From an uncultured Phascolarctobacterium sp. (lineage in GTDB: Bacteria; Bacillota; Negativicutes; Acidaminococcales; Acidaminococcaceae), in the NCBI GenBank assembly GCA_949295115.1, contig CASFJU010000004.1, forward strand, positions 120,153 through 184,152: a DNA stretch of 64,000 nt, read 5' to 3'. Both the position numbers and the translations under genes were made by a program. The notes under the pieces are model-generated. The model was not told the origin of the DNA, ran no database searches, and was given only the letters and a program-made list of their open reading frames with translations. The number at the start of each line of letters is the position of its first letter. Within the stretch, counting starts at the first letter, position 1. Below, one piece after another: positions 43,652-61,141 of the stretch.

Positions 43652-43726
43652 GCGGGTGTAGTTCAGTGGTAGAACAATAGCTTCCCAAGCTATGTGTCGC
43701 GAGTTCGAGTCTCGTCACCCGCTCCA
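43652..43726 (+). tRNA. tRNA-Gly(CCC), integration target of the island
   Basis: Cloverleaf; ATAGC-TT CCC AA-GCTAT; CCA; promoter TTGCCA...TGCTATAAT upstream. Confidence 0.95.
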
Positions 43727-43727
43727 G
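43682..43727 (+). repeat. attL core (46-bp direct repeat)
   Basis: TTCCCAAGCTATGTGTCGCGAGTTCGAGTCTCGTCACCCGCTCCAG, identical to 61096-61141. Confidence 0.95.
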
Positions 43728-43806
43728 TAAATAAGCGCACTTGCAAATCTTTGCAAGTGCTTTTTTATTGAAAAACCAAAGATAAGACTTATTTTAAGAC
43801 TAAATT

Positions 43807-43846
43807 AAAAAATCCGTTAGAGTATTATTACTCTGACGGATTTTTT
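43807..43846 (-). terminator. Terminator of the XRE gene
   Basis: AAAAAATCCGTTAGAGTA/TACTCTGACGGATTTTTT hairpin. Confidence 0.7.
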
Positions 43847-43847
43847 A

Positions 43848-44456
43848 TTACTCTGCAAATATCGGCGATTTATTTTCGAAAACTACATTGAGCGATTTAA
43901 TGCAATGCTCTAAAAATTCTTTATTTGCTCCACTAATCAAAAGATAATGAAATATTTGATAGGCCTTAATTTTGATTTCAGACTCATCTTTATCAGCAAA
44001 TTCATAAATTCGATCTCCGACATACCGTTCCCATTCATACTTAATGATATAGAGCAAAAAAATAATATCTGCTCGAGCAGCTAATGAATATGTTTGTTGA
44101 CGAATTTCATAATTTTTATAGTCATCTGGCAACTCAATCGGCACATCTACTGTTGTATCACAAACCGTCACTGTTAACGGAAATGAAGAAGGTTCCAAAA
44201 TTTTAATAACAGATTCGGAGTATTTTTCATCTGAACGGCCAAGCAACCAGTCTAAATTAACAGCAAAAATATCAGCAACAAATTGTAAATTATCAACTGT
44301 AGGAGTCCGCTTATTATTTTCCCATAAACTTAAAGTAGATTGGCTTAAATTTATCACATTAAATACTGAACAATATCTTGCTAACACAGAATGAGTTAAC
44401 TGATATTGCATTCGTATACTTTTTAATCGGTTCGCAAACAGTTCTGAATTAAACAC
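43848..44456 (-). CDS. XRE family HTH repressor of the element
   Basis: FANRLKSIR...LSQSTLSLWENNKRTP...VNLDWLLGRS; GAGGTG RBS before GTG at 44456. Confidence 0.85.
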   Translation of the reverse strand: MFNSELFANRLKSIRMQYQLTHSVLARYCSVFNVINLSQSTLSLWENNKRTPTVDNLQFVADIFAVNLDWLLGRSDEKYSESVIKILEPSSFPLTVTVCDTTVDVPIELPDDYKNYEIRQQTYSLAARADIIFLLYIIKYEWERYVGDRIYEFADKDESEIKIKAYQIFHYLLISGANKEFLEHCIKSLNVVFENKSPIFAE

Positions 44457-44478
44457 AAAACACACCTCGTACTAAAAT

Positions 44479-44575
44479 AATATTGCAAAATTCATTGACA
44501 TTATTGCAATAACGCTTTATAATTATTATAACAATATTGCAATTGTAATATTGTTATAATAATAAGGCAATATTA
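44479..44575. promoter_or_regulatory. Divergent control region with consensus rightward promoter and operator palindromes
   Basis: TTGACA (44495)-17-TATAAT (44518); TTATTGCAATAA palindrome in the spacer; 42-bp near-perfect palindrome at 44522-44563. Confidence 0.75.
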
Positions 44576-44614
44576 ATATATCTAAATTATATCATAGTTG
44601 GGACTGATTGAACA

Positions 44615-45250
44615 GTGAAGAACGCTTTTTGTATAGACAAACGTGTTATTTCCGGTGCCCGCTTTTTGCGTTTAAGCGCTACAGCACAATCACTTTACTT
44701 TCATTTAAACGCTGACGCAGATGATGACGGCATCGTCGAAGCCTTTGCAACTGTCAACAAAATACGGGCTAATGAGCAAGACTTAATACAACTCATTCAA
44801 GCCAATTTTATTGTATTACTCAATAAAAATGAATTGGTAGCATATATCACGGACTGGGTACGAAATAATAAAGGGCTTGATATACGTTGGCATAAGCAAA
44901 GCGAATATCTACAGCTTTTAGCTGATGTATGTCCTGATGCAAAGATTTATGTTGCAATATTACGCAATGGCAAGAAAATTAAATTGTTAACTACGGCCAA
45001 AGAAGCCATAATGACAAAGAATACTAATAAAGATAACAGTACAACACAAGAGAATCTCATGGATTCTCTTGATATTCTCAAGCTAAAAACAAGACAAGAG
45101 AATAACAATAATAAGTTATTCTCTTGTCTTGATAGTAGTATATATCAATGTCCTACTTGTGATGGTAAAGGAACTGTGGATAACTTGCTATGTGAAACCT
45201 GTCATGGCACAGGCTTAATTCAATATCATAAAAAGGAGAAATCAAAATGA
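44615..45250 (+). CDS. Phage-type replisome organiser / replication initiator with C-terminal DnaJ-type zinc finger
   Basis: N-terminus FLRLSATAQSLYFHLNADADDDGIV...ITDW resembles Firmicute phage replisome organisers; C-terminus has CPTCDGKG...CETCHGTG. Confidence 0.7.
   Translation: MKNAFCIDKRVISGARFLRLSATAQSLYFHLNADADDDGIVEAFATVNKIRANEQDLIQLIQANFIVLLNKNELVAYITDWVRNNKGLDIRWHKQSEYLQLLADVCPDAKIYVAILRNGKKIKLLTTAKEAIMTKNTNKDNSTTQENLMDSLDILKLKTRQENNNNKLFSCLDSSIYQCPTCDGKGTVDNLLCETCHGTGLIQYHKKEKSK
45047..45131. repeat. Two inverted-repeat pairs with CAAGAGAAT core (candidate origin iterons)
   Basis: CAAGAGAATC/GATTCTCTTG (10 bp perfect) and CAAGACAAGAGAATAAC/GTTATTCTCTTGTCTTG (17 bp perfect). Confidence 0.8.
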
Positions 45251-45453
45251 CTAAAAAATTTTATAGCGTCGCTGAAGTAGTCGATATAATTGGAAACATT
45301 AGCAAGGGCAATATTTATCGCCTGATTAAACGTGGTGATATACCTGCTATGTATATTGGGCAACGCCCTTTTGTGCCTTGCAGCTGGGTAGCGAGCAAAC
45401 TGGCAGAAGCAGATGCGTGGCAAACTAAACATACCACGCCTACCAAAGCCTAA
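45247..45453 (+). CDS. Excisionase-like HTH protein
   Basis: 68 aa; FYSVAEVVDIIGNISKGNIYRLIKRGDIPA..IG..; directly upstream of the integrase. Confidence 0.8.
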   Translation: MTKKFYSVAEVVDIIGNISKGNIYRLIKRGDIPAMYIGQRPFVPCSWVASKLAEADAWQTKHTTPTKA

Positions 45454-46685
45454 TGGCACGCCGGGCATGGGGCGAAGGCTCCGTCTTTTTTGACAAAGTT
45501 AATCAGCGTTGGACATGGAGGGGCACATACCTGATAAATGGTATAAAAACTCCAAAAACATTAACTGCAAAACGGCAAATAGATTTAAAAGAAAAAGTAG
45601 AAAAATTTAAATTTGATGTCAATCAAGGAGTTTTTGACAGCGCCAATATCACTGTTGCTGATTGGATAAAAAAATATTTAATTTTGTTTGTACAACCTAC
45701 GGTTCGTCCATCGACTTTTAACACTTATACTGAAAAATTAAACTTTGTTGTGCGAGCCTTTGGAGAACGAAAATTAAAAACTTTAACCCCTATGGAATTA
45801 CAAAATTTTTTTAATTCTCTTGCTATTGACGGTGGCGCAAAACGACAGGGTCTTTCTCCTACATCTGTCAATACAATTCGCCGTTACTTTAAAGCAGCCT
45901 GCCAAGCAGCTGTTAAAAATCATCTGCTTACAGATAACCCTGTCGATGGAACAAAAGCACTCCGCACAAAAAAGCCCGTAATTATTGTAGCTGATGAAGA
46001 TGAAGTCTTACGCTTGTTAGAAGTAGCTAAAGACGGTTCATATATTTACGAAGGAGTAAAAAACAAAAATTATATTACTGAAAATGAAGGCACTAAATAT
46101 TATAAACAATGTTTTTTCAATGTAGTTAATTTAGACTTGGCCACCGGATTGCGTAGCAGTGAATTATTTGGCTTACGTTGGCAAAACATTAATTGGGCCA
46201 AAGGCTATATCGACTTAAAAGAACAACTATTAATCATCAATGGTAAATATACTTTTTGTGAATTAAAGACTGATAAATCGAAACGCAAAATATACCTAAG
46301 TGAAAAGGTTATTGTTGAGCTACGCCGTTGGAAAATATATCAAAATTTTTACGCAGAAATGCTTGGCGATAAATTTGAAAATATACATAATTTGATTTTT
46401 ACCAACACATTTGGAGGATTTGTAAATGTACAAAACTTTAAACGCCGTTATTATTTTAAGATGCTTTCCGCCGCCGGTATCCAAAAAGGTTTTAACATTC
46501 ACTCCATGCGGCACACTCATGCAACTTTGCTTTTAAAGCATGGTGTAAAACCAAATGTTGTGGCTGATAGATTAGGGCACAGCAATGCTACAGTAACACT
46601 CAACATCTATGCACATGTACTCGAAAATATGGAAGATACTGCACCTAATACTTGGCAAGATATTTTAAAAGGGGAGAATTTATAA
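45453..46685 (+). CDS. Tyrosine integrase of the element
   Basis: N-terminal arm-binding region RRAWGEGSV; catalytic TGLR, HSMRH, LGH, IY all present. Confidence 0.93.
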   Translation: MARRAWGEGSVFFDKVNQRWTWRGTYLINGIKTPKTLTAKRQIDLKEKVEKFKFDVNQGVFDSANITVADWIKKYLILFVQPTVRPSTFNTYTEKLNFVVRAFGERKLKTLTPMELQNFFNSLAIDGGAKRQGLSPTSVNTIRRYFKAACQAAVKNHLLTDNPVDGTKALRTKKPVIIVADEDEVLRLLEVAKDGSYIYEGVKNKNYITENEGTKYYKQCFFNVVNLDLATGLRSSELFGLRWQNINWAKGYIDLKEQLLIINGKYTFCELKTDKSKRKIYLSEKVIVELRRWKIYQNFYAEMLGDKFENIHNLIFTNTFGGFVNVQNFKRRYYFKMLSAAGIQKGFNIHSMRHTHATLLLKHGVKPNVVADRLGHSNATVTLNIYAHVLENMEDTAPNTWQDILKGENL

Positions 46686-46687
46686 AA

Positions 46688-46760
46688 GCTGGGGTTTAAG
46701 GGGTTTACCCCTTGCCAGTGCTATCGTTGGTACCAGAAAGGTACCACGATGGGGAGCTGG
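46688..46760 (+). promoter_or_regulatory. Candidate oriT
   Basis: AAGGGG-TTTA-CCCCTTGCCAG hairpin plus ATCGTTGGTACC/GGTACCACGAT inverted repeat immediately upstream of mobC. Confidence 0.5.
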
Positions 46761-46792
46761 CCAATCAATATAATAATAAACGAGGTTGTAAA

Positions 46793-47107
46793 ATGGCACC
46801 AAAGTCAAAAACAGGTAAAAATTGCGATTTGCATTTGCGCGTCAATACTCAATTAAAAATATATATCGCTAATAAAGCTTCTGAAAATAATAAAACAATT
46901 AATGATTATTGTACAGATATTTTAAAAAATTATAAATATGCCAACCAGCTGATGAATATTGAGGCAATTCAGAAGAAGAAAGTTCGGCTTTTATCAAATT
47001 TAGCTAATAATTTAAATCAGCTTGCAAAACTATGTAATAGTGAAAAAGAGGCACCTCAAAAAGAAATGTTGTTAGCTATGTGGAATGATTTAAAAGCAAT
47101 AAGGTGA
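46793..47107 (+). CDS. mobC: MobC-type relaxosome accessory protein
   Basis: RHH-like N-terminus (LHLRVN), LSNLANNLNQLAKLCN motif; precedes the relaxase. Confidence 0.85.
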   Translation: MAPKSKTGKNCDLHLRVNTQLKIYIANKASENNKTINDYCTDILKNYKYANQLMNIEAIQKKKVRLLSNLANNLNQLAKLCNSEKEAPQKEMLLAMWNDLKAIR

Positions 47108-47111
47108 TTTT

Positions 47112-48074
47112 ATGCCAATACTAAAAGCGATAGATAATCCTGGAAAAAGCGTGGGAACTGTTATCAATTATGCAGATAAAGACCGAAAAAAAGAAATGAA
47201 TGACACATTATTTTTCGGTATAAATTGTGCTGATAATGCTGAAATTGCAGCCTATCAAATGCAAAAAACTAAAGAGTTTTATAATAAAACCGATGGCAGG
47301 CAATATAAGCATTATGTATTATCTTTCGCATCCAACGAAATAAGTATAGAAAGCGCAAAAATATATGCAAAAGAATTTGGCGAACAATGCTTTGGTGAAC
47401 GTTTTGAAGTAGCTGTTGGCATACATGTAAACAGTGAAGGTGGCAAGATACATGCACATTTTGTAGTAAATTCCGTGAGCTTTATTGACGGCAAAAAGCT
47501 ACATTTTGGTAAAGAAGATTTGGAAAATTTTAAATCTATAAACGATTGTTTAGCAAAGCAATATGGACTAAAAGTAATCGACCGCAACCCTGAAGCAGTA
47601 AAAGCACGAGGCCGCCCTCAAATGTATTCACAAAAAATGTATTGGCAATTTACTCAAAAAATAAAAGATAGCTGGGTTGCTCAATGTTCTGTTTCTGTTA
47701 ATGAATCATTAAAAACTAACCCAAAAAACTTTAATGAATTTGCCGAAAAAATGCAAGCAAACGGATGGGACACCCAAATACGTGGAAAGAATATAACTTT
47801 TAGCTGTATTCAAAATCCCAAGTTAAAAGTACGCGCTAACACTTTGGCAAGAAAGTTTAATAATGATACATTAAGCACAGCTAATATAATGCGAGTTTGC
47901 AATACCGAAAACCAGTATGATTTTATTAAAAAATCTGAACAACCAACTTTAACTAAAAATATGACAAATATAGTATCTGCGGTTAAAAATTTATCTCAAT
48001 ATGATAATTCAATACCAACCACAAAAGGATTTAAAGTAAATTTAGATAGTCGGGATGACGACTACGAAAGATAA
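47112..48074 (+). CDS. MOBP-family relaxase / mobilisation nuclease
   Basis: Motif I Tyr (VINY), YKHYVLSF, motif III GKIHAHFVVNSVS. Confidence 0.9.
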   Translation: MPILKAIDNPGKSVGTVINYADKDRKKEMNDTLFFGINCADNAEIAAYQMQKTKEFYNKTDGRQYKHYVLSFASNEISIESAKIYAKEFGEQCFGERFEVAVGIHVNSEGGKIHAHFVVNSVSFIDGKKLHFGKEDLENFKSINDCLAKQYGLKVIDRNPEAVKARGRPQMYSQKMYWQFTQKIKDSWVAQCSVSVNESLKTNPKNFNEFAEKMQANGWDTQIRGKNITFSCIQNPKLKVRANTLARKFNNDTLSTANIMRVCNTENQYDFIKKSEQPTLTKNMTNIVSAVKNLSQYDNSIPTTKGFKVNLDSRDDDYER

Positions 48075-48090
48075 AAAGGAGAAGATAAAA

Positions 48091-48273
48091 ATGATTAAAT
48101 CAAATAATAGTTTAAAATTAAAAGGCAATGTTATGAATAAACAAATTACATCTTATCAAAAGCAAATTGACAAGATAACGGAAAATGGTAAAAATGCAGT
48201 CATCTTGCGGTATATATATTGGGCTATTATTGTTTTTGGTATTTTGAGTATAGTATATCGCGTGACTAAATAA
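48091..48273 (+). CDS. Small hypothetical protein with C-terminal TM helix
   Basis: AAGGAG RBS before ATG at 48091; YIYWAIIVFGILSIVY. Confidence 0.5.
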   Translation: MIKSNNSLKLKGNVMNKQITSYQKQIDKITENGKNAVILRYIYWAIIVFGILSIVYRVTK

Positions 48274-49028: not shown

Positions 49029-51776
49029 ATGAATAAACAGCAGCTTGCATCTAAAATTTGGGAATCAGCCAATAAAATGCGTTCTAAAATTGAGGCTAAC
49101 GAATATAAAGATTATATTCTTGGTTTTATTTTTTATAAATTTCTTTCAGATAAAGAAGTCAAATTTTTAAAAGAAAATGACTGGACAGACGAATATTTGC
49201 CGGAACTTGATGAAAACGATACAGATAACGTAGACTTCGTGCAGAAGAATATAGGTTATTTTATTCCTTATGAACATTTATTTTCGACCTGGATTGCAAA
49301 AGGCAACGATTTTACAGCAGATAATGTAAGCGTTGCTTTATCTTCCTTCAGCCGTTTGGTAAACGAATCGCACAAAGGTGTATTTAAAAACATTTTTCAA
49401 ACGCTGGAAACAGGTCTGTCCAAACTCGGAGCAACTGCTCCTGACCGCACCAAAGCTATTCGCGATTTAATCAACCTTATTAAAGATATACCCATGGACG
49501 GCAAGCAGGATTACGATGTACTTGGCTTTATTTACGAATATTTAATCAGCAACTTTGCTGCTAACGCAGGCAAAAAAGCTGGTGAATTTTACACTCCTCA
49601 TGAAGTATCACTTTTAATGTCGGAACTTGTTGCGCATCACCTTAAAGACCGCGATAAAATTGAAATTTACGACCCTACCAGCGGTTCCGGTTCGCTGCTT
49701 ATCAACATTGGCCAATGTGCTGCCAAATATATTGGCAGTGAGAACAACATAAAATATTATGCGCAGGAACTTAAAGAAAATACCTATAACCTTACGCGTA
49801 TGAACCTTGTTATGCGCGGAATTTTGCCGGATAACATCGTTACCCGTAATGGCGATACTTTAGAGGACGACTGGCCTTATTTTGATGATAAAGACCCGGT
49901 TAATACTTATAATCCGCTTTATGTAGATGCCGTTGTATCTAATCCGCCATATTCCCAGGCATGGGACCCTACTGATAAAGAAATGGACGCACGTTATTCG
50001 CGTTTTGGCCTTGCACCTAAAAGCAAAGCAGATTACGCCTTCCTTTTGCACGACTTGTTCCATTTAAAAGCAGACGGCATTATGGCTATTGTACTGCCGC
50101 ATGGCGTACTGTTTCGTGGTGGCGAAGAAGGCAAAATTCGTAAAAACTTAATAGAATATAACCATATCGACGCTATTATTGGCCTTCCGGCAAATATTTT
50201 CTTTGGCACCGGCATACCCACTATTATTATGGTGCTTAAACAAAAACGTGATAACACCGATGTGCTTATAGTCGATGCTTCCAAAGGATTTGCCAAAGTA
50301 GGCAAAAATAATATGCTTCGCGCCTGTGATATTAAAAAAATTGTAGACGCTGTAACAACCCGCTCTGACATTGATAAATTCTCTAAAAAGGTAAGTCGCG
50401 ATACCATCCGCGCTAATGATTATAACCTTAACATTCCCCGCTATGTTGATTCTTCCGAAAAAGCTGAAAGCTGGGACATTTATGCCTCTATGTTTGGTGG
50501 CATTCCCGAAAACGAATTAGCGGATTTACAAGCCTATTGGGACGCCTTCCCTACTCTTAAAACATCTCTGTTTAAACAATTAAACGCCGGTTATTGGCTG
50601 CTTAATACTGATGATTTAAAAACAGCAGTTAGCGACAACACAGATATAACCACTTTTAAAACTAATTACAACAACGCCTTTGGCGATTTTAACGCTTATC
50701 TTAATGCTGAACTTATAGATGATACCGTAAATGTTAATATCTCTAAAGAACTAAACACTATCAGCGATAATATTTTTGCACGCCTTCAAAACGTGCCGTT
50801 AATCGATAAATACGAAGCTTACCAGCTGCTTGCCGATAATTGGAATAACATTGCCGTTGATTTAGAAATACTGCAAACCGAAGGTATGGACGCTGTTAAA
50901 GTGGTAGACCCTAATTTTGTTGTAAAAAAGAAAAACGGCAAAGATGAAGAAGTGCAGGAAGGTTGGAAAGGTCATGTGCTACCGTTTGAATTGGTACAAA
51001 AAGTTATCTTAAACGAAGATGTTCAAGAATTGGATTCAAAGAACTCTATGTTAAATAACATTAAAGCAAAACTTGATGATATTATTGAAAACTTATCTGA
51101 GGAAGATAGAGAGTCTAATTTATTAAATGATGCAAATACTGCTTTCAATGAAAGTGAAGTAAAAAATAAAATTAAAATTATTTTAAACGATATAAAAACA
51201 ACAGAAATTGAAGTATTGCAAGAATATTTATCTCTGAGCAAAAAGAAGGAAAAAATAGAATTTATAAAACAAAAAAACGATTATTTTCCAGATAAAATAT
51301 TGATTGCAAATGATGGAACCTATAAAAAGAATGATATAAAAAATTATATTAATGAGTTGAAATTAACATATCAGTTTCCAGAGGGGTCTTGGGAAAACAC
51401 ATTAAAAGAGATATTAGACCTTTTAAATAATGAAAAAATATTAAAAGATGAAATAAAGAAAAAAACTATCGCTTTACACCTTAAAACTAAAGAAGTTATA
51501 GAACAACTTACTGATGAGCAAGTAAACACCTTACTTAAAGAAAAATGGATTACACCGTTTTTCAACAGCTTAAACGGTCTGCCTGATGCTGTTGTAAATA
51601 CTTTAGTTAATAAACTGGAAACTATTTGCAAAAAATACGAAACCACTTTTGCTGATGTAGAAAAAGAGATTGCCGAAACCGAACAAAGTTTAATAGGTAT
51701 GCTTGATGAGTTGGAAGGCAATGAGTTTGATATGCAGGGTATTGCTGAACTGAAAGCATTGTTAGGGGGTAAGTAA
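49029..51776 (+). CDS. hsdM: Type I restriction-modification methyltransferase (long 915-aa form)
   Basis: LASKIWESANKMR, GEFYTP, DPTSGSG (motif I), NPPY (motif IV), VLPHGVLFRGG. Confidence 0.96.
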   Translation: MNKQQLASKIWESANKMRSKIEANEYKDYILGFIFYKFLSDKEVKFLKENDWTDEYLPELDENDTDNVDFVQKNIGYFIPYEHLFSTWIAKGNDFTADNVSVALSSFSRLVNESHKGVFKNIFQTLETGLSKLGATAPDRTKAIRDLINLIKDIPMDGKQDYDVLGFIYEYLISNFAANAGKKAGEFYTPHEVSLLMSELVAHHLKDRDKIEIYDPTSGSGSLLINIGQCAAKYIGSENNIKYYAQELKENTYNLTRMNLVMRGILPDNIVTRNGDTLEDDWPYFDDKDPVNTYNPLYVDAVVSNPPYSQAWDPTDKEMDARYSRFGLAPKSKADYAFLLHDLFHLKADGIMAIVLPHGVLFRGGEEGKIRKNLIEYNHIDAIIGLPANIFFGTGIPTIIMVLKQKRDNTDVLIVDASKGFAKVGKNNMLRACDIKKIVDAVTTRSDIDKFSKKVSRDTIRANDYNLNIPRYVDSSEKAESWDIYASMFGGIPENELADLQAYWDAFPTLKTSLFKQLNAGYWLLNTDDLKTAVSDNTDITTFKTNYNNAFGDFNAYLNAELIDDTVNVNISKELNTISDNIFARLQNVPLIDKYEAYQLLADNWNNIAVDLEILQTEGMDAVKVVDPNFVVKKKNGKDEEVQEGWKGHVLPFELVQKVILNEDVQELDSKNSMLNNIKAKLDDIIENLSEEDRESNLLNDANTAFNESEVKNKIKIILNDIKTTEIEVLQEYLSLSKKKEKIEFIKQKNDYFPDKILIANDGTYKKNDIKNYINELKLTYQFPEGSWENTLKEILDLLNNEKILKDEIKKKTIALHLKTKEVIEQLTDEQVNTLLKEKWITPFFNSLNGLPDAVVNTLVNKLETICKKYETTFADVEKEIAETEQSLIGMLDELEGNEFDMQGIAELKALLGGK

Positions 51777-51777
51777 A

Positions 51778-52867
51778 ATGCCTGAAAATGCTAAAAAACC
51801 GCAAATTAGATTCAAAGGATTTACGGACGATTGGGAACAGCGTAAGTTCTATTAGAAAAAGCGGAAAATATGAAATCCTTGGTTCTACTTCAGTTATTGG
51901 ATATGATAATTCTTATGATTATGAAGGTGATTTTTTACTAACTGCTCGTGTAGGGGCAAATGCCGGAGAATTATATAGACATAATGGAAAAGTAAAAATC
52001 AGCGATAATACTGTATTTATTCAAGGAAAAGCATTAGATTTTATATATTATGCTTTATTAAATTTTGATATAAAACGTCTTTCGTTTGGAACCGGCCAAC
52101 CTTTGGTGAAAGCCAGCGAATTAAAAGAATTATTACTTTATATGCCGAGCGAGTTAGAAAGAAAGTTTATAGGTAAGTATTTTATTTTTTTAGATAACCT
52201 TATCACCCTTCATCAGCGTAAGTTAGATAAGCTTAAAAATATTAAAAAATCTATGCTTGAAAAAATGTTTCCAAAAAATGGCAGCAATATTCCGGAAATT
52301 CGTTTTAAAGGATTTACTGACGCTTGGGAACAGCGTAAGTTGGACGAAATTGCAATTTTTAATCCTAAAGCTGAATTGCCAAATGTTTTTGAATATGTGG
52401 ACCTTGAATCTGTAATCGGAACCGAAATGGTATCTCATAGAACAGAAACTAAATATACTGCACCTTCTAGAGCACAACGTTTAGCTTATGCAGGAGATTT
52501 GTTTTACCAAACAGTAAGACCATATCAAAAAAATAACTATCTTTTTGAAAAAGCAGATAAATTCTATGTTTTTTCAACAGGCTATGCACAACTACGTCCA
52601 TTAACAGATGGTTATTTTCTGCTTTCTATTATCCAAAATTCAAATTTCGTAAAAACTGTTTTAGATAATTGTACTGGTACAAGTTATCCTGCTATTAATT
52701 CTAATGACCTCTCACAAATCTACGTATCAACTTCTTTAGATATGGAAGAATGTAAACAAATAGGATATTTCTTTCGTAAACTTGACAACCTTATCACCCT
52801 TCATCAGCGTAAGCTGGAGAAGTTACAGAACATAAAAAAAGCTTGCTTAGAAAAGATGTTTGTATAA
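51778..52867 (+). pseudogene. hsdS: Type I specificity subunit (TRD-a + TRD-b), frameshifted at ~51849 in this sequence
   Basis: MPENAKKPQIRFKGFTDDWEQRK then FY-stop; the rest (TRD, LITLHQRK, MLEKMFP..IRFKGFTDAWEQRK, TRD, LEKMFV) is in another frame. Confidence 0.85.
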
Positions 52868-52884
52868 GCAGAAAGGAAAAAGTC

Positions 52885-55800
52885 ATGGCTTTTACATCGG
52901 AAGCAGAATTTGAAAAAGCATTAGTTGATTTATTGCCGTCTAAAGGTTGGGAAAAGACTGTTTTAAAAAATCCTACCGAAGAACAGCTTATTCAAAACTG
53001 GGCTGATATTTTATTTGAAAACAACCGCAGCATTGACCGTTTAAACGATTATCCGCTTACTAAAGGAGAAATGGCTCAAATTTTAGAGCAAATTAAAAAC
53101 TTAAGAACGCCACTGATGCTGAATGGTTTTATTAACGGCGGCAGTGTACAAATTACGCGCGATAATTCGCAGGACACTTTGCATTTTGGCAAAGAAGTTT
53201 CGCTTAAAATTTATGATCGCCGCGAAATTGCCGCAGGCCAAAGCCGTTACCAAATAGTTGAGCAGCCGCAGTTTAATACTAAATCACCCATACTTAACAA
53301 TAGGCGTGGTGATGTAATGCTGCTTATTAACGGTATGCCGGTAATTCATATCGAACTTAAAAAGAGTGGCATCCCTGTAAGTCAGGCATATCACCAAATC
53401 GAAAAATATGCGCACGAAGGCGTATTTACCGGGCTGTTTTCATTAGTGCAAATTTTTGTAGCCATGAACCCTGAAGAAACCGTATATTTCGCTAACCCGG
53501 GACCTGATGGAACTTTTAACTCTGATTTTTACTTTCATTGGGCAGATTTTAACAATGAACCTATTAACGATTGGCAGCGCGTTGCCTCTACTCTGCTCTC
53601 TATACCAATGGCACATCAATTAATTGGCTTTTATACTGTTGCAGACGATTTAGACGGTATTTTGAAAGTTATGCGAAGCTATCAGTATTTTGCCGCCAGT
53701 GCTATTTCTGATAAAGTTGCTAAAACTAAATGGGAAGGCAATGAACAATTAGGCGGTTACATTTGGCATACTACCGGCAGCGGCAAAACTATGACTTCTT
53801 TTAAATCTGCACAACTTATTGCTGCCTCTAACGATGCTGATAAAGTAGTATTTTTAATGGACCGTATCGAACTTGGCACACAAAGTTTAAGGCAGTACCG
53901 TGGTTTTGCTGATAATGCCGATAATGTACAGGCAACGGAAAACACTGGTGTGTTGGTAAGTAAATTAAAAAGTAACGATGTAAAAAATACTCTGATAGTT
54001 ACCTCAATACAAAAAATGAGTAACATTAAAGACGAAGCCGACGGTGGCATGACTTCTGTTGATGTCAAACTAATGCAATCTAAACGCATCGTTTTTATCG
54101 TTGATGAATGTCATCGTTCTACTTTCGGTGATATGCTGTATATAATTAAGCAAACTTTCCCTAAAGCCGTATTTTTCGGCTTTACCGGCACGCCTATTCA
54201 CCTTGAAAACCAAAAGAAAAAATCTACGACAGCTATGGTTTTTGGTAATGAACTGCACCGTTACAGTATTGCAGACGGCATTCGTGATAAAAACGTACTT
54301 GGTTTTGACCCTTATAAGGTTTTAACCTATAAAGACCAGGATGTGCGCGAGCAAATTGGATTAGAAGCAGTTAAAGCACAAACACTTGAAGAAGTGTACG
54401 CCGATGAGAAAAAAACTAAAAAATTTAATGAATATATGAAAATGCCTATGGCTGGGTATTATGAAAATAATGAGTATATAAAAGGCATTGAGGATTATTT
54501 GCCTGATAGTCAGTACCGCACAGAAGAACACCAGAACAATGTTGTAAAAGATATCATAGATAACTGGGTATATCTTAGCCATAATAGTAAATTCCACGCT
54601 ATTTTTGCCACATCAAGCATTAACGAAGCCATAGAATATTATAGACTGATGAAAAAAGCTGCACCGCAGCTTAAAATAACAGCACTTTTTGACTCCAGCA
54701 TTGATAATAATGGCAAAGCAGAATTTAAAGAAGATGGTCTTGTAGAAGTTATCGAAGATTATAATGCACATTATAATCAGCATTTTACTATCCCTACATT
54801 TGCCGCTATGAAGAAGGATATTGCCGCAAGGCTGGCGCATAAAAAACCTTATCAACGGCTGAAGCCTGAAGAACAGGTTGATTTGTTGATAGTAGTTGAC
54901 CAAATGCTTACCGGGTTCGATTCAAAATGGGTTAACACGCTTTATATGGATAAAGTGCTTAAATATGAGAATATCATTCAAGCGTTCTCGCGTACCAATC
55001 GCATTTTTGGACCGGAAAAACCGTTTGGCACAATTAAATATTACCGCAGGCCGCATACTATGGAAAAATTAGTAGCGGCAGCCTTTAAGCTTTACTCCGG
55101 CGATAAACCGTTTGGCTTATTTGTAAACAAGTTAAATAAAAACTTAGAAGATTTAAATTTTTATTATAAAAGCATTAAAGACCTCTTTGGACAAGCAGGC
55201 ATAGCGGACTTTGCTAAACTGCCGGAGCAGCAAGCCGAATGTAAGGAGTTTGCACGTTTATTTAAACTATTAAACGAAGCTTTGGAAGCAGCTAAATTGC
55301 AAGGTTTTAACTGGAATAAATTAGAATATCAATTCGTAGACGAGAATAGCGGAGAAAAGTACAGCATTAAAGTAGCTTTAGATGAAAAGACTTATAAAAT
55401 ACTGGCCAAAAGGTATAAAGAATTATCCAAACCTGGCGGAAGCGGGCCTGGTGAAGAAATGCCTTATGATATTGATGGTTATTTAACAACTATTGATACC
55501 GATGATATTGATTCAGATTACATGAATTCCCGCTTTGTAAAGTATATTAAATTACTGCATACTGATGGTACATCGGCAGAGATTTTAGCTAAAGCCGCTG
55601 ATGAGTTGCATAAAACTTTTGCTACTTTAACTCAGGAAGAACAAAAGTACGCAAATATTTTATTACACGATATTCAGCGTGGCGATGTAATACCGGAAGC
55701 TGGTAAAACCTTTAGAGATTACATAACAGAGTATTTAGCCAATGCCAAAAACACGCAGGTACATAAAGTGGCGCAAATTTTAGGTTTAGACGAAGCCAAA

Positions 55801-56013
55801 TTGCTGAAAATGATGGCGTTAGGTGTGACAGATGCCAATATTAATGCTTTTGGACGTTTTGATGAATTAAAGACAACGGTCGATAAGCAAAAAGCGAAGG
55901 CTTATTTTGAAAAAGTTGAAGGCAAAAAAATTATACTGCCTAAAGTAAATAACAAAATTGACCTGTTTTTAAGAAATTTTATTATAAGTGGAGGATTTGA
56001 TATCGAGCAATAA
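52885..56013 (+). CDS. hsdR: Type I restriction endonuclease subunit R
   Basis: D...IELKK nuclease motif, HTTGSGKT, DECH, FTGTP, QAFSRTNR. Confidence 0.96.
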   Translation: MAFTSEAEFEKALVDLLPSKGWEKTVLKNPTEEQLIQNWADILFENNRSIDRLNDYPLTKGEMAQILEQIKNLRTPLMLNGFINGGSVQITRDNSQDTLHFGKEVSLKIYDRREIAAGQSRYQIVEQPQFNTKSPILNNRRGDVMLLINGMPVIHIELKKSGIPVSQAYHQIEKYAHEGVFTGLFSLVQIFVAMNPEETVYFANPGPDGTFNSDFYFHWADFNNEPINDWQRVASTLLSIPMAHQLIGFYTVADDLDGILKVMRSYQYFAASAISDKVAKTKWEGNEQLGGYIWHTTGSGKTMTSFKSAQLIAASNDADKVVFLMDRIELGTQSLRQYRGFADNADNVQATENTGVLVSKLKSNDVKNTLIVTSIQKMSNIKDEADGGMTSVDVKLMQSKRIVFIVDECHRSTFGDMLYIIKQTFPKAVFFGFTGTPIHLENQKKKSTTAMVFGNELHRYSIADGIRDKNVLGFDPYKVLTYKDQDVREQIGLEAVKAQTLEEVYADEKKTKKFNEYMKMPMAGYYENNEYIKGIEDYLPDSQYRTEEHQNNVVKDIIDNWVYLSHNSKFHAIFATSSINEAIEYYRLMKKAAPQLKITALFDSSIDNNGKAEFKEDGLVEVIEDYNAHYNQHFTIPTFAAMKKDIAARLAHKKPYQRLKPEEQVDLLIVVDQMLTGFDSKWVNTLYMDKVLKYENIIQAFSRTNRIFGPEKPFGTIKYYRRPHTMEKLVAAAFKLYSGDKPFGLFVNKLNKNLEDLNFYYKSIKDLFGQAGIADFAKLPEQQAECKEFARLFKLLNEALEAAKLQGFNWNKLEYQFVDENSGEKYSIKVALDEKTYKILAKRYKELSKPGGSGPGEEMPYDIDGYLTTIDTDDIDSDYMNSRFVKYIKLLHTDGTSAEILAKAADELHKTFATLTQEEQKYANILLHDIQRGDVIPEAGKTFRDYITEYLANAKNTQVHKVAQILGLDEAKLLKMMALGVTDANINAFGRFDELKTTVDKQKAKAYFEKVEGKKIILPKVNNKIDLFLRNFIISGGFDIEQ

Positions 56014-56043
56014 AAAACTTTCGCTTATATACGGCGCAAAGAT

Positions 56044-56074
56044 AAAAGAGTCAAGGATTTTCCTTGGCTCTTTT
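56044..56074 (+). terminator. Terminator after hsdR, insulating the silent cassettes
   Basis: AAAAGAGTCAAGG/CCTTGGCTCTTTT hairpin. Confidence 0.65.
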
Positions 56075-56081
56075 GCTATGT

Positions 56082-57049
56082 TTGGGAACAGCGTAAGTTG
56101 GGAGAGATAGCAGAAACTTATTCCGGTGGCACGCCTTCAGTAAGTATAAAAAAATATTATATTGGAAATATTCCTTTTATTCGTTCAGCAGAAATAAATA
56201 GTAAAAGCACAGAATTATTTATCAATGAGGAAGCTTTACTATATTCATCTGCTAAACGTGTTTCAACTGGCGATATTTTATATGCGCTATACGGGGCTAC
56301 TAGCGGAGAAGTAGGGAGAGCAGCTTTAAATGGAGCAATAAATCAAGCTGTATTAGCTATTTTACCACAGAAAAAATATGATTCTGAATATTTAATGCAA
56401 TGGCTACGTAAAAGTAAATTTAAAATAATAGGAACATTCTTACAAGGTGGTCAAGGTAATTTATCAGCAGAAATAGTCAAAAATTTAAATATTGATTTGC
56501 CAAACAAAGTAGAACAAGAGAAAATAGGAAATTATTTCTTAAATCTTGATAACCTTATCACCCTTCATCAGCGTAAATATTTTTGCAGTAATAACCTAAT
56601 ATTTACTATAACAACCGCTTGGGAACAGCGTAAGTTGGGAAAATTTGGATATACTTATACTGGTCTTTCTGGAAAAATCAAAGAAGATTTCGGCCATGGG
56701 CAAGCTCGCTTTATTACTTACAACATCGTCAGAGACGCCTGAAGAAGTTGGGATGTCCTCGGTTTTACTTGAAAAATATAATATAACTTATTTAAATAGC
56801 TTTTGTTTTGGATTTAGGCCAACTGAAAAATTTAATAATCACTTTATCGCATATATGCTCCGTTCCAAAACAGTGAGAGAAAAAATTATTCTTCTTGCAC
56901 AGGGGATATCAAGATATAACATATCAAAAAATAAAGTGATGGAAATAGATATTTCTTTGCCGACGCTTAAAGAGCAAAAATTTGTTGGTCAATATTTTAA
57001 GTCTCTCGACAACCTTATCACCCTTCATCAGCGTGAGTGTTTTTATTAA
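56082..57049 (+). other. hsdS: Two silent hsdS TRD cassettes (TRD-c, TRD-d); TRD-d carries an internal frameshifting deletion at ~56718
   Basis: Each cassette is bounded by WEQRK and NLITLHQR repeats; no RBS or N-terminal leader; conserved central spacer is replaced by a short linker. Confidence 0.85.
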
Positions 57050-57064
57050 AAAAGGAGGTGCAAA

Positions 57065-57994
57065 ATGTTAAGTTTAATTAAAAATGTAGACCTTTTTCAT
57101 CAGTATTATCATTCATGGATAAAGGTTTACAAAGAAGGGGCTGTACGAAAAGTAACTATGGATAAATATTATATGACATATTCATGGTTAATAAGATTAG
57201 CGCCCAAATTGCGTTTATGTGATGTTACCAGAATTACTTATCAGCAGTTGCTTAATGATTATGCCATATATCACGAAAGGCAAACTACCATGGATTTTCA
57301 CCATCAACTGAAAGGTGCAATAATGGACGCTGTTGATGAAGGACTTATTGAGCGTGACCCTACACGAAAAGCGATAATTAAAGGCAAAACACCGGCAATA
57401 AAAAAGAAAAAGTATCTTAACCAATTTGAACTGCATACTTTGCTCATCAATTTAGATTTGCAAAACAGAATTAACTGGGATTGGCTGATTATGTTAATAG
57501 CCAAAACAGGCATCAGGTTTTCGGAAGCATTAGCTATTACGCCTAAAGATTTTGACTTTTCTCACCAAATGCTTTCTATTAGCAAAACTTGGGATTATAA
57601 GGGGAGCGGCGGTTTTTTGCCAACAAAAAATGCGTCTTCAGTGCGGAAAATTCAAATTGATTGGCAAACAGTAATTCAGTTTGCAGAACTGGTAAAAAAT
57701 TTGCCTAACGATAAACCTATATTTTTGTTAAAAGAAAAAATATATAATTCTACTATAAATGATATTTTAGAAAGGCGTTGCCGCAAAGCTAATTTGCCTG
57801 TTATTTCTGTACACGGGCTTAGGCATACGCACGCATCATTGCTACTTTTTGCTGGTGTTTCCATTGCCAGTGTTGCCAGACGGCTCGGCCACGCCAGCAT
57901 GACAACAACACAAAAAACTTATCTGCATATTATACAAGAGTTGGAAAATAAAGATGTTGATTTAGTTATGCGCTCCATAGCCGGACTAAGTTAA
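57065..57994 (+). CDS. Second tyrosine recombinase, hsdS-shufflon-associated type
   Basis: 309 aa with no arm-binding domain; TGIRFSE, HGLRHTH, RLGH, TY; adjacent to the TRD cassettes. Confidence 0.88.
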   Translation: MLSLIKNVDLFHQYYHSWIKVYKEGAVRKVTMDKYYMTYSWLIRLAPKLRLCDVTRITYQQLLNDYAIYHERQTTMDFHHQLKGAIMDAVDEGLIERDPTRKAIIKGKTPAIKKKKYLNQFELHTLLINLDLQNRINWDWLIMLIAKTGIRFSEALAITPKDFDFSHQMLSISKTWDYKGSGGFLPTKNASSVRKIQIDWQTVIQFAELVKNLPNDKPIFLLKEKIYNSTINDILERRCRKANLPVISVHGLRHTHASLLLFAGVSIASVARRLGHASMTTTQKTYLHIIQELENKDVDLVMRSIAGLS

Positions 57995-58111: not shown

Positions 58112-58987
58112 ATGGATAATTTAAAATATAAATACGAACTTCTAATAAACTGGTGGCGTTCACTTAATATTACTGATGATGCTGCACTTGCAGAAGCTTT
58201 TAACGAGCATATCATTAATTTTGCATATAATTCCGGCAACATTGAAAATCCTAATGTTACCTACCACGATACCCGTGAAATTTTTGAACATGACAGTGTT
58301 ACCGGCTACACAGGCAATTTATGCACGCTGTTTGAAATTCGTAATGCTAAAGTTGCTATGGAATACTTCTTTAAAGCCTTTAGGGATAAAATGCCTTTGA
58401 ATGAAACCTTCATCAAAGAATTGCAGCGGCGTTTGACACTTAACACTTACGATGAACGCCGCTGGCAGTGCTGTGAGTGCCCGGGAGAATACAAGAAATG
58501 CGATTATGTTACCGGCAGAAATGAAACCGGCGCATCTGCCGAAGATGTTCCGGATGAAATGCAGGAGCTGTTAGAGGATTTAGAGGTACTGCCGAAAGAA
58601 CCTGAAAAAGTTTTGATGGCAGCTGCTTTCTTCCACGCAAAGTTTGAAAATATCCATCCTTTTGCCGACGGAAATGGGCGTACCGGCCGCCTTGCCATGA
58701 ATTACCTGCTTGCCATAAATAATCATCCGCCACTTGTAATTCATCAAGAGGATAGAAAAGCGTACTTTGAAGCCCTTGAAGCGTGGGACACGGAGCAGAA
58801 CCTTAAACCGTTAAAAGCCTTTTTGTTGAAACAGATTATAAAAACGTGGGCAAAAAGGATTACTGTTTTAGAAAAAGCGGAAAATGAGGAAGATTTAAAA
58901 GATTTTAAGCAGGCAATGGATGAATTTAAGAAAAATCCTAAAACCTATACCCACGAAGAAATGAAGAAAATGTTTGATTTAAAATAA
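58112..58987 (+). CDS. Fic family protein (class II) with an extra antitoxin-like C-terminal tail
   Basis: Canonical HPFADGNGRTGR; N-terminal inhibitory SGNIEN matching (S/T)xxxE(G/N). Confidence 0.9.
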   Translation: MDNLKYKYELLINWWRSLNITDDAALAEAFNEHIINFAYNSGNIENPNVTYHDTREIFEHDSVTGYTGNLCTLFEIRNAKVAMEYFFKAFRDKMPLNETFIKELQRRLTLNTYDERRWQCCECPGEYKKCDYVTGRNETGASAEDVPDEMQELLEDLEVLPKEPEKVLMAAAFFHAKFENIHPFADGNGRTGRLAMNYLLAINNHPPLVIHQEDRKAYFEALEAWDTEQNLKPLKAFLLKQIIKTWAKRITVLEKAENEEDLKDFKQAMDEFKKNPKTYTHEEMKKMFDLK

Positions 58988-59498: not shown

Positions 59499-60821
59499 TT
59501 AATTATTTTCTAACAGCCAATCAATTATGTTTAATGATTTAATGCCATTATAATCAGCGTCGTTGTTTAAATCCATAGATAGCACAATCTTTTCGTAATT
59601 ATCACGTATTTTCTGCAACGGTGCTAATTCACGCTTGCGTACTTCTTCTCCTTGCAAGCTTTCCGTTACCTGAATATACAATTTTTCGTTATATTTTGTT
59701 GCTATAAAATCAACTTCGGTATTATCAACCTTGCCAACGGCTAAATCGTAACCACGCCGCAAAAGTTCAAGGTAAATAACATTTTCTAAAATGTGTCCTC
59801 TATCACGGTCGCGGTTGCCAAGCAAATAGGTTCTAAGCCCAGTATCGACAATATAATATTTGCCAAGGGTTCTTAAAAATTCTTTGCCTTTTATATCAAA
59901 TCGTTTAATTTCATAAAAAAAGTAACTTTCAGTTAAAGTGTTTACATAAGACTGGACAGTATGCGTACTGGGCTTGCCTTTACGTGTTTCTATATCTATT
60001 AATCCTTCATTGCTAAGCGTACCTGCCATTGATGTAGCAGAAATACTGCTGCCAATATTATCTGCAAGGAAAAGGATTATTTTACGTAATAACGCAGCAT
60101 CAGTAATACGTTTTTGACCCCTGCGCTTTTCCCTTTCCAGTATATCTCTTATTACTACTGTTGAATAAATTCCGTCCAATAGTGCCATAGCCTTGTCCAT
60201 TTCAAGACCTATATCGGCAATGCCAGGCATACCGCCAAAAAGCAAGTAAGCATTAAAGGCTTCTGCCGGTTCATAACTAATACCGTTTTTGTCTTTAATA
60301 ATTTTACGCTTGCCTCCAAAGGCACTGGTAGCTTCTTCTATCTTAAACTCGTGGAAATCAAGAAATTCTGCAAAAGAGAGCGGCAACATTTTAATTTCAA
60401 CGCTGCGTCCGGAAAGATATGTGGCATATTCTGACGATAGCAAATAGGCATTAGAACCGGTTATATAAATATCGCAGTCAAAATCAACACGGAAAGAATT
60501 AACAGCATCTTCCCAACCTTCTATGCGTTGAAGTTCATCAAAAAAGAGATACGAGCGTTTTTCTGTATTGATATGCTCTTTAACATAACTGTAAAACTCC
60601 TGCGCTGTCATATTCCTAAAAGCCATAGATTCAAAATTCATTGACAGTATTTGGTTATCTGCAACGCCTTGTTCCTGTAAATATTTAATCATCAGCTTTA
60701 GCAAACTGGATTTACCACAGCGGCGGATGCCGGTAATTATTTTTACAGGCTCTGTATCTTTAAAAGCGATCAATTTATTTAAATAACCGTTTCTTGATTT
60801 TAAAATTTGGTTGCTAATCAT
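59499..60821 (-). CDS. AAA_14 + DUF4143 ATP-binding protein
   Basis: ITGIRRCGKS Walker A, FFDELQ, ITGSN, LSGR, LENVIYLEL, EVDF, YIQV. Confidence 0.88.
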   Translation of the reverse strand: MISNQILKSRNGYLNKLIAFKDTEPVKIITGIRRCGKSSLLKLMIKYLQEQGVADNQILSMNFESMAFRNMTAQEFYSYVKEHINTEKRSYLFFDELQRIEGWEDAVNSFRVDFDCDIYITGSNAYLLSSEYATYLSGRSVEIKMLPLSFAEFLDFHEFKIEEATSAFGGKRKIIKDKNGISYEPAEAFNAYLLFGGMPGIADIGLEMDKAMALLDGIYSTVVIRDILEREKRRGQKRITDAALLRKIILFLADNIGSSISATSMAGTLSNEGLIDIETRKGKPSTHTVQSYVNTLTESYFFYEIKRFDIKGKEFLRTLGKYYIVDTGLRTYLLGNRDRDRGHILENVIYLELLRRGYDLAVGKVDNTEVDFIATKYNEKLYIQVTESLQGEEVRKRELAPLQKIRDNYEKIVLSMDLNNDADYNGIKSLNIIDWLLENN

Positions 60822-61095
60822 TTTTAACACCTGCCTTATGTAAATTATAGCACAAACTCTAAAAAAAACAAAGTTTATGCTATGAAATGCACAAACTTTT
60901 GAAATATTAACGAATTTGAATTGTTGAAAACATATGAAATTATAAACAAATAGTAAGACAAAATAGTGACTAATTCTAATTTAACTGCTTTGAAACATAA
61001 TAAAAAGTTTACACAAATTATGGTTTAAACTGATATTTTTATAATAAAAAAGTAAAATATTACACATGAATTATATAATTCTTTCATATTGAAAA

Positions 61096-61141
61096 TTCCC
61101 AAGCTATGTGTCGCGAGTTCGAGTCTCGTCACCCGCTCCAG
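61096..61141 (+). repeat. attR core (duplicated 3' half of tRNA-Gly)
   Basis: Identical to 43682-43727; followed by a hairpin and T-tract (61147-61180), probably the original tRNA terminator. Confidence 0.95.

Follow-up and report, generated by a model that had tools for sequence, protein, structure and literature searches.

Why should a gene of a mobile element carry two perfect inverted repeats within its own coding sequence? The question is raised by gene X, which encodes a protein of 211 amino acids (aa) and belongs to an island integrated at a tRNA-Gly gene of an uncultured Phascolarctobacterium sp. (contig CASFJU010000004.1 of assembly GCA_949295115.1). The whole stretch of 64,000 nucleotides that was analysed, positions 120,153 to 184,152 of that contig, is called the window, and all coordinates refer to it unless a homologous locus is named. 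We consider it probable, from a comparison with homologous genes and elements, that the repeats, which lie in the DNA encoding the linker of X, constitute a replication origin of the iteron type with two tiers. From the same comparison we infer that X would bind them, that the duplex would open there, that the C-terminal zinc finger of X would take part, and that replication would follow.

The first inverted repeat (IR-A) consists of CAAGAGAATC (45047-45056) and GATTCTCTTG (45062-45071) with a spacer of 5 nt, the second (IR-B) of CAAGACAAGAGAATAAC (45090-45106) and GTTATTCTCTTGTCTTG (45115-45131) with a spacer of 8 nt. Both pairs had been reported in an initial annotation of this DNA as perfect, with arms of 10 bp and 17 bp, and direct reading, a repeat search and a scan of our own all agree with this. 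The same annotation described the arms as four copies of one 9-mer, which is correct for the lineage of the window, while in other lineages the sequences of IR-A and IR-B are unrelated to each other. In the window, the 9-mer CAAGAGAAT occurs five times, where 0.41 copies are expected and none of 100 shuffled sequences reaches five. Four of these copies are located within IR-A and IR-B and one within int, the integrase gene of the element. A further, degenerate copy, ATTCTCAAG at 45074-45082, follows 11 nt after the second copy and had been missed in the initial annotation, so that the first tier (tier 1) comprises three units. When the region 45030-45150 is folded as single-stranded DNA, both hairpins form, with an energy of -26.2 kcal/mol (z = -8.5) that none of 200 shuffled sequences equals. 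The exact copy of CAAGAGAAT inside int, on the minus strand at 45814-45822, is probably due to chance or specific to the lineage; it is treated in this way because the homologues have no additional copy of the arm core at that position.

What kind of protein is encoded around these repeats? A replisome-organizer-type domain occupies the N-terminal part of X (approximately aa 1-135), and aa 9-150 match the family PHROG 8489, annotated as 'DnaD-like helicase loader' (E 6e-19); X also matches PHROG 5708 (1.5e-13). A zinc finger of the DnaJ type, with two CxxCxGxG motifs, follows at aa 177-204, the matches to DnaJ_CXXCXGXG and anti-TRAP being under the curated cut-offs. Residues 141-175 have a predicted local distance difference test (pLDDT) score below 50 in an AlphaFold2 model and are therefore taken as a linker. 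As the repeats encode aa 145-172, they are indeed situated between an initiator-type domain and a zinc finger, as had been proposed. The model of X is poor overall (mean pLDDT 64, predicted template modelling score 0.39) and a Foldseek comparison with the PDB gave nothing under E 0.18, so that the assignment was based on sequence homology and not on the fold. When the PDB was searched by sequence, X matched the DnaJ zinc finger only.

Sequence homology places the N-terminal domain among the replisome organizers of phages. Residues 6-104 of X share 45% identity with ORF11 of phage r1t (E 4e-14 by tblastn, which also matched 57 other phage records), and further matches are to genes for a 'replisome organizer' or 'DNA replication protein' in phages of Lactococcus, Lactobacillus, Clostridium and Enterococcus and in satellite phages of Streptococcus. 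The initial annotation had pointed to initiators of the lambdoid O type, but X is not a homologue of lambda O and its relatives are of the r1t ORF11, Rep2009 and G38P kind; no lambda O-type family was among the Pfam, NCBIfam and PHROG matches of X up to an E value of 5. In lambda O, iterons with internal dyad symmetry are located in the linker-coding DNA between the DNA-binding and the recruiting domains. X would share this design principle with lambda O and ori-lambda by analogy only.

In characterised homologues, repeats within the gene for the replisome organizer function as the origin. ORF13 of TP901-1 and Rep2009 of Tuc2009 bind direct repeats within their own genes, these repeats being the replication origin (ori), and r1t ORF11 is a homologue of Rep2009 (summary of PMC8965321). 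For X, the binding of the repeats and replication from them are predicted. A further case is oriL of phage SPP1, which is embedded in gene 38 and consists of iterons ('AB boxes') that are bound by the gene product G38P, together with an unwinding element; G38P is a replisome organizer without an AAA+ domain and belongs to PF09524 (PMC5737612). The C-terminal domain of r1t ORF11 is also PF09524 (Phg_2220_C), and through this protein G38P is linked to the X family, although X itself has no PF09524 domain.

The arrangement of the repeats can be compared in detail for r1t ORF11, where, as in X, they are found directly after the N-terminal domain. At aa ~105-132 of r1t ORF11 there are four copies of GGAACCGAAAT with a period of 11 nt, followed by three copies of AGATAAGAATA with a period of 15 nt. 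The X family shows the same two tiers, first one with 11-nt spacing and then the palindrome, and the second tier carries an AAGA(N)AAT-like motif in both cases (AGATAAGAATA in r1t, AAGAGAATAAC in X). Javan462, one of the Streptococcus 'Javan' satellites, has AAGTCAAG and GGTCAAGACAA repeats at the same relative position within its gene. The arm motif CAAGTCAAG of some palindromes of the X family recurs at this position in the closest satellite-type relatives from Streptococcus, and it is contained in the repeats of Javan462. More generally, in 140 of 235 distinct genes with this N-terminal domain some 7-mer occurs three or more times within 110 nt, and the cluster is centred at aa 120-160 from the start of the domain in 116 of these 140. 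Spacings of 15, 10, 11, 22 and 33 nt were observed, on account of which the clusters are interpreted as iteron arrays and not as amino-acid repeats. In X, the repeats thus occupy both tiers of a repeat region that is typical of the family and is the ori in its characterised members, and for this reason an origin is the best-supported reading.

In several respects the X locus differs from these systems. The second tier of X is a perfect palindrome, whereas it consists of direct repeats in r1t and its like; the repeats of the Javan-type genes are direct as well. X terminates in a DnaJ-type zinc finger, in contrast to the Phg_2220_C domain of r1t ORF11 and the DnaB_2-type C-terminus of the Javan-type proteins. 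A loader gene is present in all three comparisons (DnaC-like in r1t, an adjacent DnaI-type gene in the Javan-type elements, and G39P in SPP1, which in addition has its own helicase G40P and an adjacent A+T-rich unwinding element), while nothing of this kind is seen with X. Finally, X resides on an integrative mobilizable element (IME) with genes for excision, integration and mobilization (xis, int and mob), and r1t, Tuc2009 and TP901-1 are phages. Judged by sequence comparison, then, the palindromic second tier, the zinc-finger C-terminus, the missing loader and the IME setting set the candidate origin of X apart from the known in-gene origins. Small integrated elements with a protein of this N-terminal domain are not without precedent, as they include IMEs of Firmicutes and the Javan satellites, which resemble phage-inducible chromosomal islands; the replisome organizers encoded by Firmicute IMEs are presumed to maintain the excised form, a function that had never been studied as of a 2017 review (PMC5704250), which says the same of the replication of excised IMEs, many of which encode proteins of this type. 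No experimental definition of an origin was found in the literature for the replisome organizers of Javan-type elements or IMEs.

Are the repeats themselves conserved? Sixteen relatives of X were found, and every one for which the DNA was fetched lies in a module consisting of a helix-turn-helix (HTH) repressor gene, X, xis, int and mob genes. Each of the 12 distinct close homologues (protein identity 38-75%) has, at the same position before the zinc finger, an inverted repeat that is perfect over 14-18 bp and encloses an A+T loop of 3-8 nt; ten different arm sequences occur among them. When all loci of the close family (204-218 aa) are considered, the palindrome is found in each of the 23 that retain the linker. 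The sole exception, locus L182, has lost its linker by a 252-nt in-frame deletion between two copies of GTCTTGATA (L182 3001-3390 compared with L174 820-1458), which took most of the palindrome together with the tier-1 repeats and a part of the N-terminal domain; one of the two GTCTTGATA copies is located within the right arm. Among loci that have the N-terminal domain alone, any perfect repeat of at least 10 bp was seen in about 12 of about 237, at scattered positions, and from this comparison with the 23 linker-retaining loci we regard the palindrome as specific to the X subfamily. A scan of genome contigs yielded only distant relatives, which have the N-terminal domain alone and at most 37% identity over long stretches.

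The arms of the palindrome change between lineages without losing their complementarity. In a register-aligned table, the 14 core pairs are all Watson-Crick pairs, without any G:T, save for one cell at the edge of the loop in L178. In the alignment of the 12 sequences, 96% of the cells are paired, as compared to 78.5% in shuffled alignments (0 of 500) and to 40-56% when the partners are slid against each other. Changes on both sides occurred in 9 of 17 pairs and one-sided changes in none. Covariation in homologues had been named as a check in the initial annotation, and it has turned out in favour of a conserved repeat. IR-A is more variable: its arms match perfectly in the window, L167 and L175 alone, and compensatory changes are found there (the variant in L167 being CACGAGAAC/GTTCTCGTG). 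Tier 1 consists of one forward and two inverted copies in these three loci, as opposed to three direct CRYGAGAAnnT units, spaced ~11 nt apart, in L171, L172, L174 and L177. The orientation of tier 1 thus differs between lineages, as if a segment of ~24 bp had been inverted in frame, and tier 2 is inverted, forming the perfect palindrome, in all close homologues.

At positions that differ from one lineage to another, strict symmetry indicates a constraint at the level of the DNA, and the comparison supports the view that the repeats are a real, conserved cis element. In frame, the arms encode the linker peptides K/R-Q/E-E/D-N-N and L-L/F-S-S/C-L, which change together, so that the palindrome provides a clear example of a DNA-level constraint that sets a protein sequence. 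The symmetry could reflect pairing, as a hairpin or cruciform, or, equally, inverted iterons that have evolved in concert; in r1t, too, the direct 15-nt repeats show 100% identity among themselves. As concerted evolution can account for perfect symmetry, a hairpin or cruciform is not proven, and this is one of the points to be held against the interpretation in its full form.

If the repeats are an origin, the following course of events can be envisaged. Relief from the HTH repressor would allow the promoter at 44495-44523 to drive X, xis and int as a single operon, and Xis and Int would excise the element from the tRNA-Gly gene. The N-terminal domain of X would then bind the tier-1 repeats (45047-45082) as well as the two arms of the palindrome (45090-45131). 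The resulting nucleoprotein complex would open the duplex, possibly aided by extrusion of the palindrome, with its A+T loop, as a cruciform in supercoiled DNA. The C-terminal zinc finger, in place of the domains which recruit a helicase loader in the phage relatives, would bring in replication proteins of the host, and the excised circle would be copied and so be kept until transfer or re-integration.

Several observations, however, weigh against an origin. Helicase, helicase loader and primase genes were not found among the ORFs of the element, and X lacks both PF09524 and the DnaB_2 C-terminal domain of its phage and satellite relatives. In those relatives a DnaC/DnaI-type loader gene adjoins, and the gene next to X is xis. 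Beside the repeats, no A+T-rich stretch stands out as an unwinding element. The initial annotation had placed them in AT-rich DNA, which applies in a mild sense only (70-77% A+T compared to ~67% for the island), and they are not in the least stable DNA of the neighbourhood: the stability over 30 bp is -31 to -34 kcal/mol near the repeats, with a regional mean of -36 (standard deviation 3.5), and the minima of -27 to -29 are reached in the promoter region at 44515-44598, ~500 bp upstream. The short A+T run between the palindrome and the zinc-finger codons is a weak candidate for the site of first melting, its nearest-neighbour energy being not unusually unstable. A multicopy form of the element was not visible in two sequencing runs with contigs that match the window almost exactly; contig depth of the element against the flanking chromosome was 22 versus 24 in run X1 and 5-10 versus ~10 in run X2, figures which come from assembled contigs that may break at the 46-bp attachment (att) repeat, since its length exceeds that of the words in the run index (31 letters). 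Lastly, P0016, a divergent member from the same module with a longer linker, has an imperfect palindrome and direct copies of AATTCAAG and no perfect palindrome.

Some of these observations would also fit repeats that are bound by X or Xis for regulation or excision. They could act as a roadblock or autoregulatory site inside the coding sequence that limits read-through into xis and int, or could be the site of an architectural factor in excision, as is the case for replication-type proteins in some mobilizable elements. X, xis and int, whose stop and start codons abut, make up a single operon, and the repeats are upstream of xis and int. The element has no other replication gene, there is neither an unwinding element nor an excess in depth, and the C-terminal domain of X is not a known helicase-recruiting domain. 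On the other hand, the position and the two tiers fit the in-gene origins of homologous replisome organizers, we did not find a precedent for such a roadblock in this family, and the promoter region possesses a palindromic operator of its own, with the different motif TTGCAATATT. On balance, we think that a purely regulatory or excision-related site is rather unlikely, and retain an origin as the favoured explanation.

The palindromic form suggests another function, namely that of a hairpin which forms in single-stranded DNA after conjugative entry and serves as a single-strand initiation signal, of the single-strand origin (sso) or primosome-assembly type, either alone or beside a role as double-strand origin. 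The element encodes a relaxase and MobC; being mobilizable, it is expected to enter recipients single-stranded. A perfect palindrome occurs in 23 loci, all of which belong to the HTH/X/xis/int/mob module (P0016, from the same module, has no perfect palindrome), and those phage and satellite relatives that were inspected have direct repeats in its place. The stem pairs strictly by Watson-Crick rules, its A+T loops are short, and as single-stranded DNA it folds very stably. Against this, perfect symmetry is equally expected of inverted iterons that evolve in concert, and known sso elements are generally longer, imperfect structures. We consider such a signal improbable. A related suggestion, put forward tentatively since we think that it may hold even though the odds are against it, retains the origin and asks what its palindromic form may be for: the second tier might have been rebuilt in this IME family as a perfect palindrome which acts as a hairpin in single-stranded DNA in the recipient or as a cruciform on the excised supercoiled circle. 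One and the same coding-region sequence would then be a double-strand origin and a single-strand initiation signal, and the zinc finger of X would be adapted to recruit priming or helicase-loading proteins of the host without a loader encoded by the element.

A structure in RNA is very improbable. It could be a feature of the X-xis-int mRNA (an RNase III site or a translational pause), as the operon that contains the hairpin is transcribed, or an intrinsic terminator of transcription on the minus strand, since in the window TTTTTAGCTT comes after the 17-bp stem on this strand and the structure is scored as terminator-like. Of the 17 pairs of that stem 6 are G-C, and its tail is TTTTT, which is a loose terminator pattern. 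However, the T-run of 4-5 after the stem is kept only in the window, L167 and L181, being absent from the other nine of the 12 distinct homologues, and the stems are A+T-rich; moreover, no minus-strand ORF of at least 120 aa exists in the element between 45.3 and 59.5 kb, so that there is no obvious transcript to terminate. A termination role is disfavoured on these grounds. For a structure in the mRNA, the lack of any one-sided (G:U-type) change, unlike the pattern in RNA helices, is unfavourable, and there is no match to an Rfam family in the region (in a scan of the window with Rfam 15, five tRNAs alone reach gathering scores).

Recognition of the palindrome by the relaxase, as an origin of transfer (oriT), is extremely unlikely, even though inverted repeats are typical of such sites and genes for a relaxase and MobC are present on the element: the palindromes of L171 and L172 are identical but are combined with different relaxase families (MobA_MobL, PF03389, versus MobC with PF03432), from which it follows that the palindrome travels with X-xis-int and not with the mob module, and the palindrome is 1.6 kb away from mobC, directly upstream of which there is a conserved non-coding alternative. 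This stretch (46691-46762), with the G+C-rich inverted repeats AAGGGGT/ACCCCTT and TGGTACC-N5-GGTACC and an invariant GCTGGCC, is on sequence grounds the likely oriT candidate and a better one than the repeats inside X.

The features of the locus and of the element are compiled in the table.

Table. Features of the X locus and of the surrounding element (coordinates of the window)
Feature	Position	Strand	Remarks
attL	43682-43727	+	Left boundary of the IME; 46-bp direct repeat, 3' part of tRNA-Gly(CCC) (gene 43652-43726); exact copy at 61096-61141
HTH_3 (XRE/RstR-like) repressor gene	43848-44465	-	Pfam HTH_3 1.4e-8; PHROG transcriptional regulator/repressor families
Sigma-70 consensus promoter	44495-44523	+	TTGACA-17-TATAAT, 12/12 match
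Palindrome with 21-nt arms and TTGCAATATT motifs	44522-44563	+	Overlaps the promoter; 95% complementary, with related copies
Gene X	44615-45250	+	211 aa; N-terminal replisome-organizer-type domain, disordered linker, DnaJ-type zinc finger
AACAC	45043-45047	+	Invariant in 12/12 distinct homologues, just 5' of the repeat cluster; linker otherwise variable
Tier-1 repeats including IR-A	45047-45082	.	Three units, listed below
Tier-1 unit 1, CAAGAGAAT	45047-45055	+	
Tier-1 unit 2, ATTCTCTTG	45063-45071	inverted	
Tier-1 unit 3, ATTCTCAAG	45074-45082	inverted	2 changes; 11 nt after the preceding copy
Tier-2 palindrome IR-B	45090-45131	.	17-bp arms, 8-nt A+T loop, invariant core AAGAnA / TnTCTT
Short A+T run, ATAGTAGTATATATC	45132-45146	+	Between palindrome and zinc-finger codons; AATAATATATATAC in most relatives; conserved in alignment
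xis, HTH_17 excisionase	45247-45453	+	Pfam HTH_17 2.5e-6; PHROG 66; start overlaps the X stop codon
int, tyrosine recombinase	45453-46685	+	Pfam Phage_integrase 2.3e-24, Phage_int_SAM_3; its start abutting the stop codon of xis
Conserved non-coding stretch between int and mobC	46691-46762	+	Alignment of four divergent elements with MobC and PF03432 relaxase
mobC/NikA-like	46793-47107	+	Pfam NikA-like/MobC
MobA/VirD2-type relaxase gene	47112-48074	+	Pfam Relaxase 7.8e-25
attR	61096-61141	+	Right boundary of the IME, where the 46-bp repeat recurs

The island in the tRNA-Gly gene has a length of 17.4 kb and a G+C content of ~33%, compared to ~51% outside. Contigs with an empty site, in which position 43727 is joined straight to the sequence right of 61141, are present in the same metagenome runs. 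By its sequence the island qualifies as an IME, an assignment based on the att repeats at a tRNA gene, int and xis, the genes for a relaxase and MobC, and the lack of conjugation genes. None of the latter was found among the scanned ORFs of the element; two small ORFs are without a Pfam match, and the scan omitted 56645-57049. X is the sole replication-type gene of the element. A megablast search with 43800-48100 against plasmid and phage collections gave no match.

The HTH repressor gene is divergent from the X-xis-int operon and occupies the same position in every homologous element. The region 44495-44563 is the probable promoter and operator of X-xis-int, the palindrome with its repeated TTGCAATATT motifs being probably the operator of the divergent repressor. 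The promoter, this palindrome and the motifs fall within 44479-44598, and one further copy of the motif is located inside X (44949-44962). Downstream of HTH/X/xis/int, the homologous elements have one of two mobilization modules, encoding either a MobA_MobL relaxase of 499-563 aa (L167, L171, L174, L175, L177 and L263) or MobC and a PF03432 relaxase (the window, L172, L179 and L180); as the same HTH/X/xis/int genes are combined with either, an exchange of modules downstream of int is indicated. Judged by the alignment of the four divergent elements, the start codon of mobC is probably the ATG at 46793 and not the TTG at 46712.

The cargo of the element includes a type I restriction-modification system (hsdM, hsdS and hsdR) at 49029-57994, with a spare hsdS fragment (56098-56742) followed by a second tyrosine recombinase gene (57065-57994), a layout which is typical of the shuffling of specificity by phase variation. 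Towards the right end of the element there are genes for a protein of the Fic/DOC family that has a DUF6290 tail (58112-58987) and, on the minus strand, an AAA_14/DUF4143 ATPase (59499-60830). In another host with an identical gene X (L161), two small genes are present between ThrE and tRNA-Gly (1282-1846), one of which weakly matches the PhdYeFM antitoxin; the pair, which may be a toxin-antitoxin system, is missing from the window and thus represents variation on the host side, beside the integration site.

With one gene and ~90 bp inside it, the X locus is a compact, testable candidate for the replication of the excised form of an IME. X and its repeats are conserved in a family of elements from the gut whose cargo serves defence, such as type I restriction-modification and Fic. 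If the palindromic form were an adaptation to single-stranded transfer, the architecture of an origin would be linked to the mode of horizontal transfer; if it were not, the locus would represent an ordinary extension of the phage design, with the origin inside the initiator gene, to mobilizable islands.

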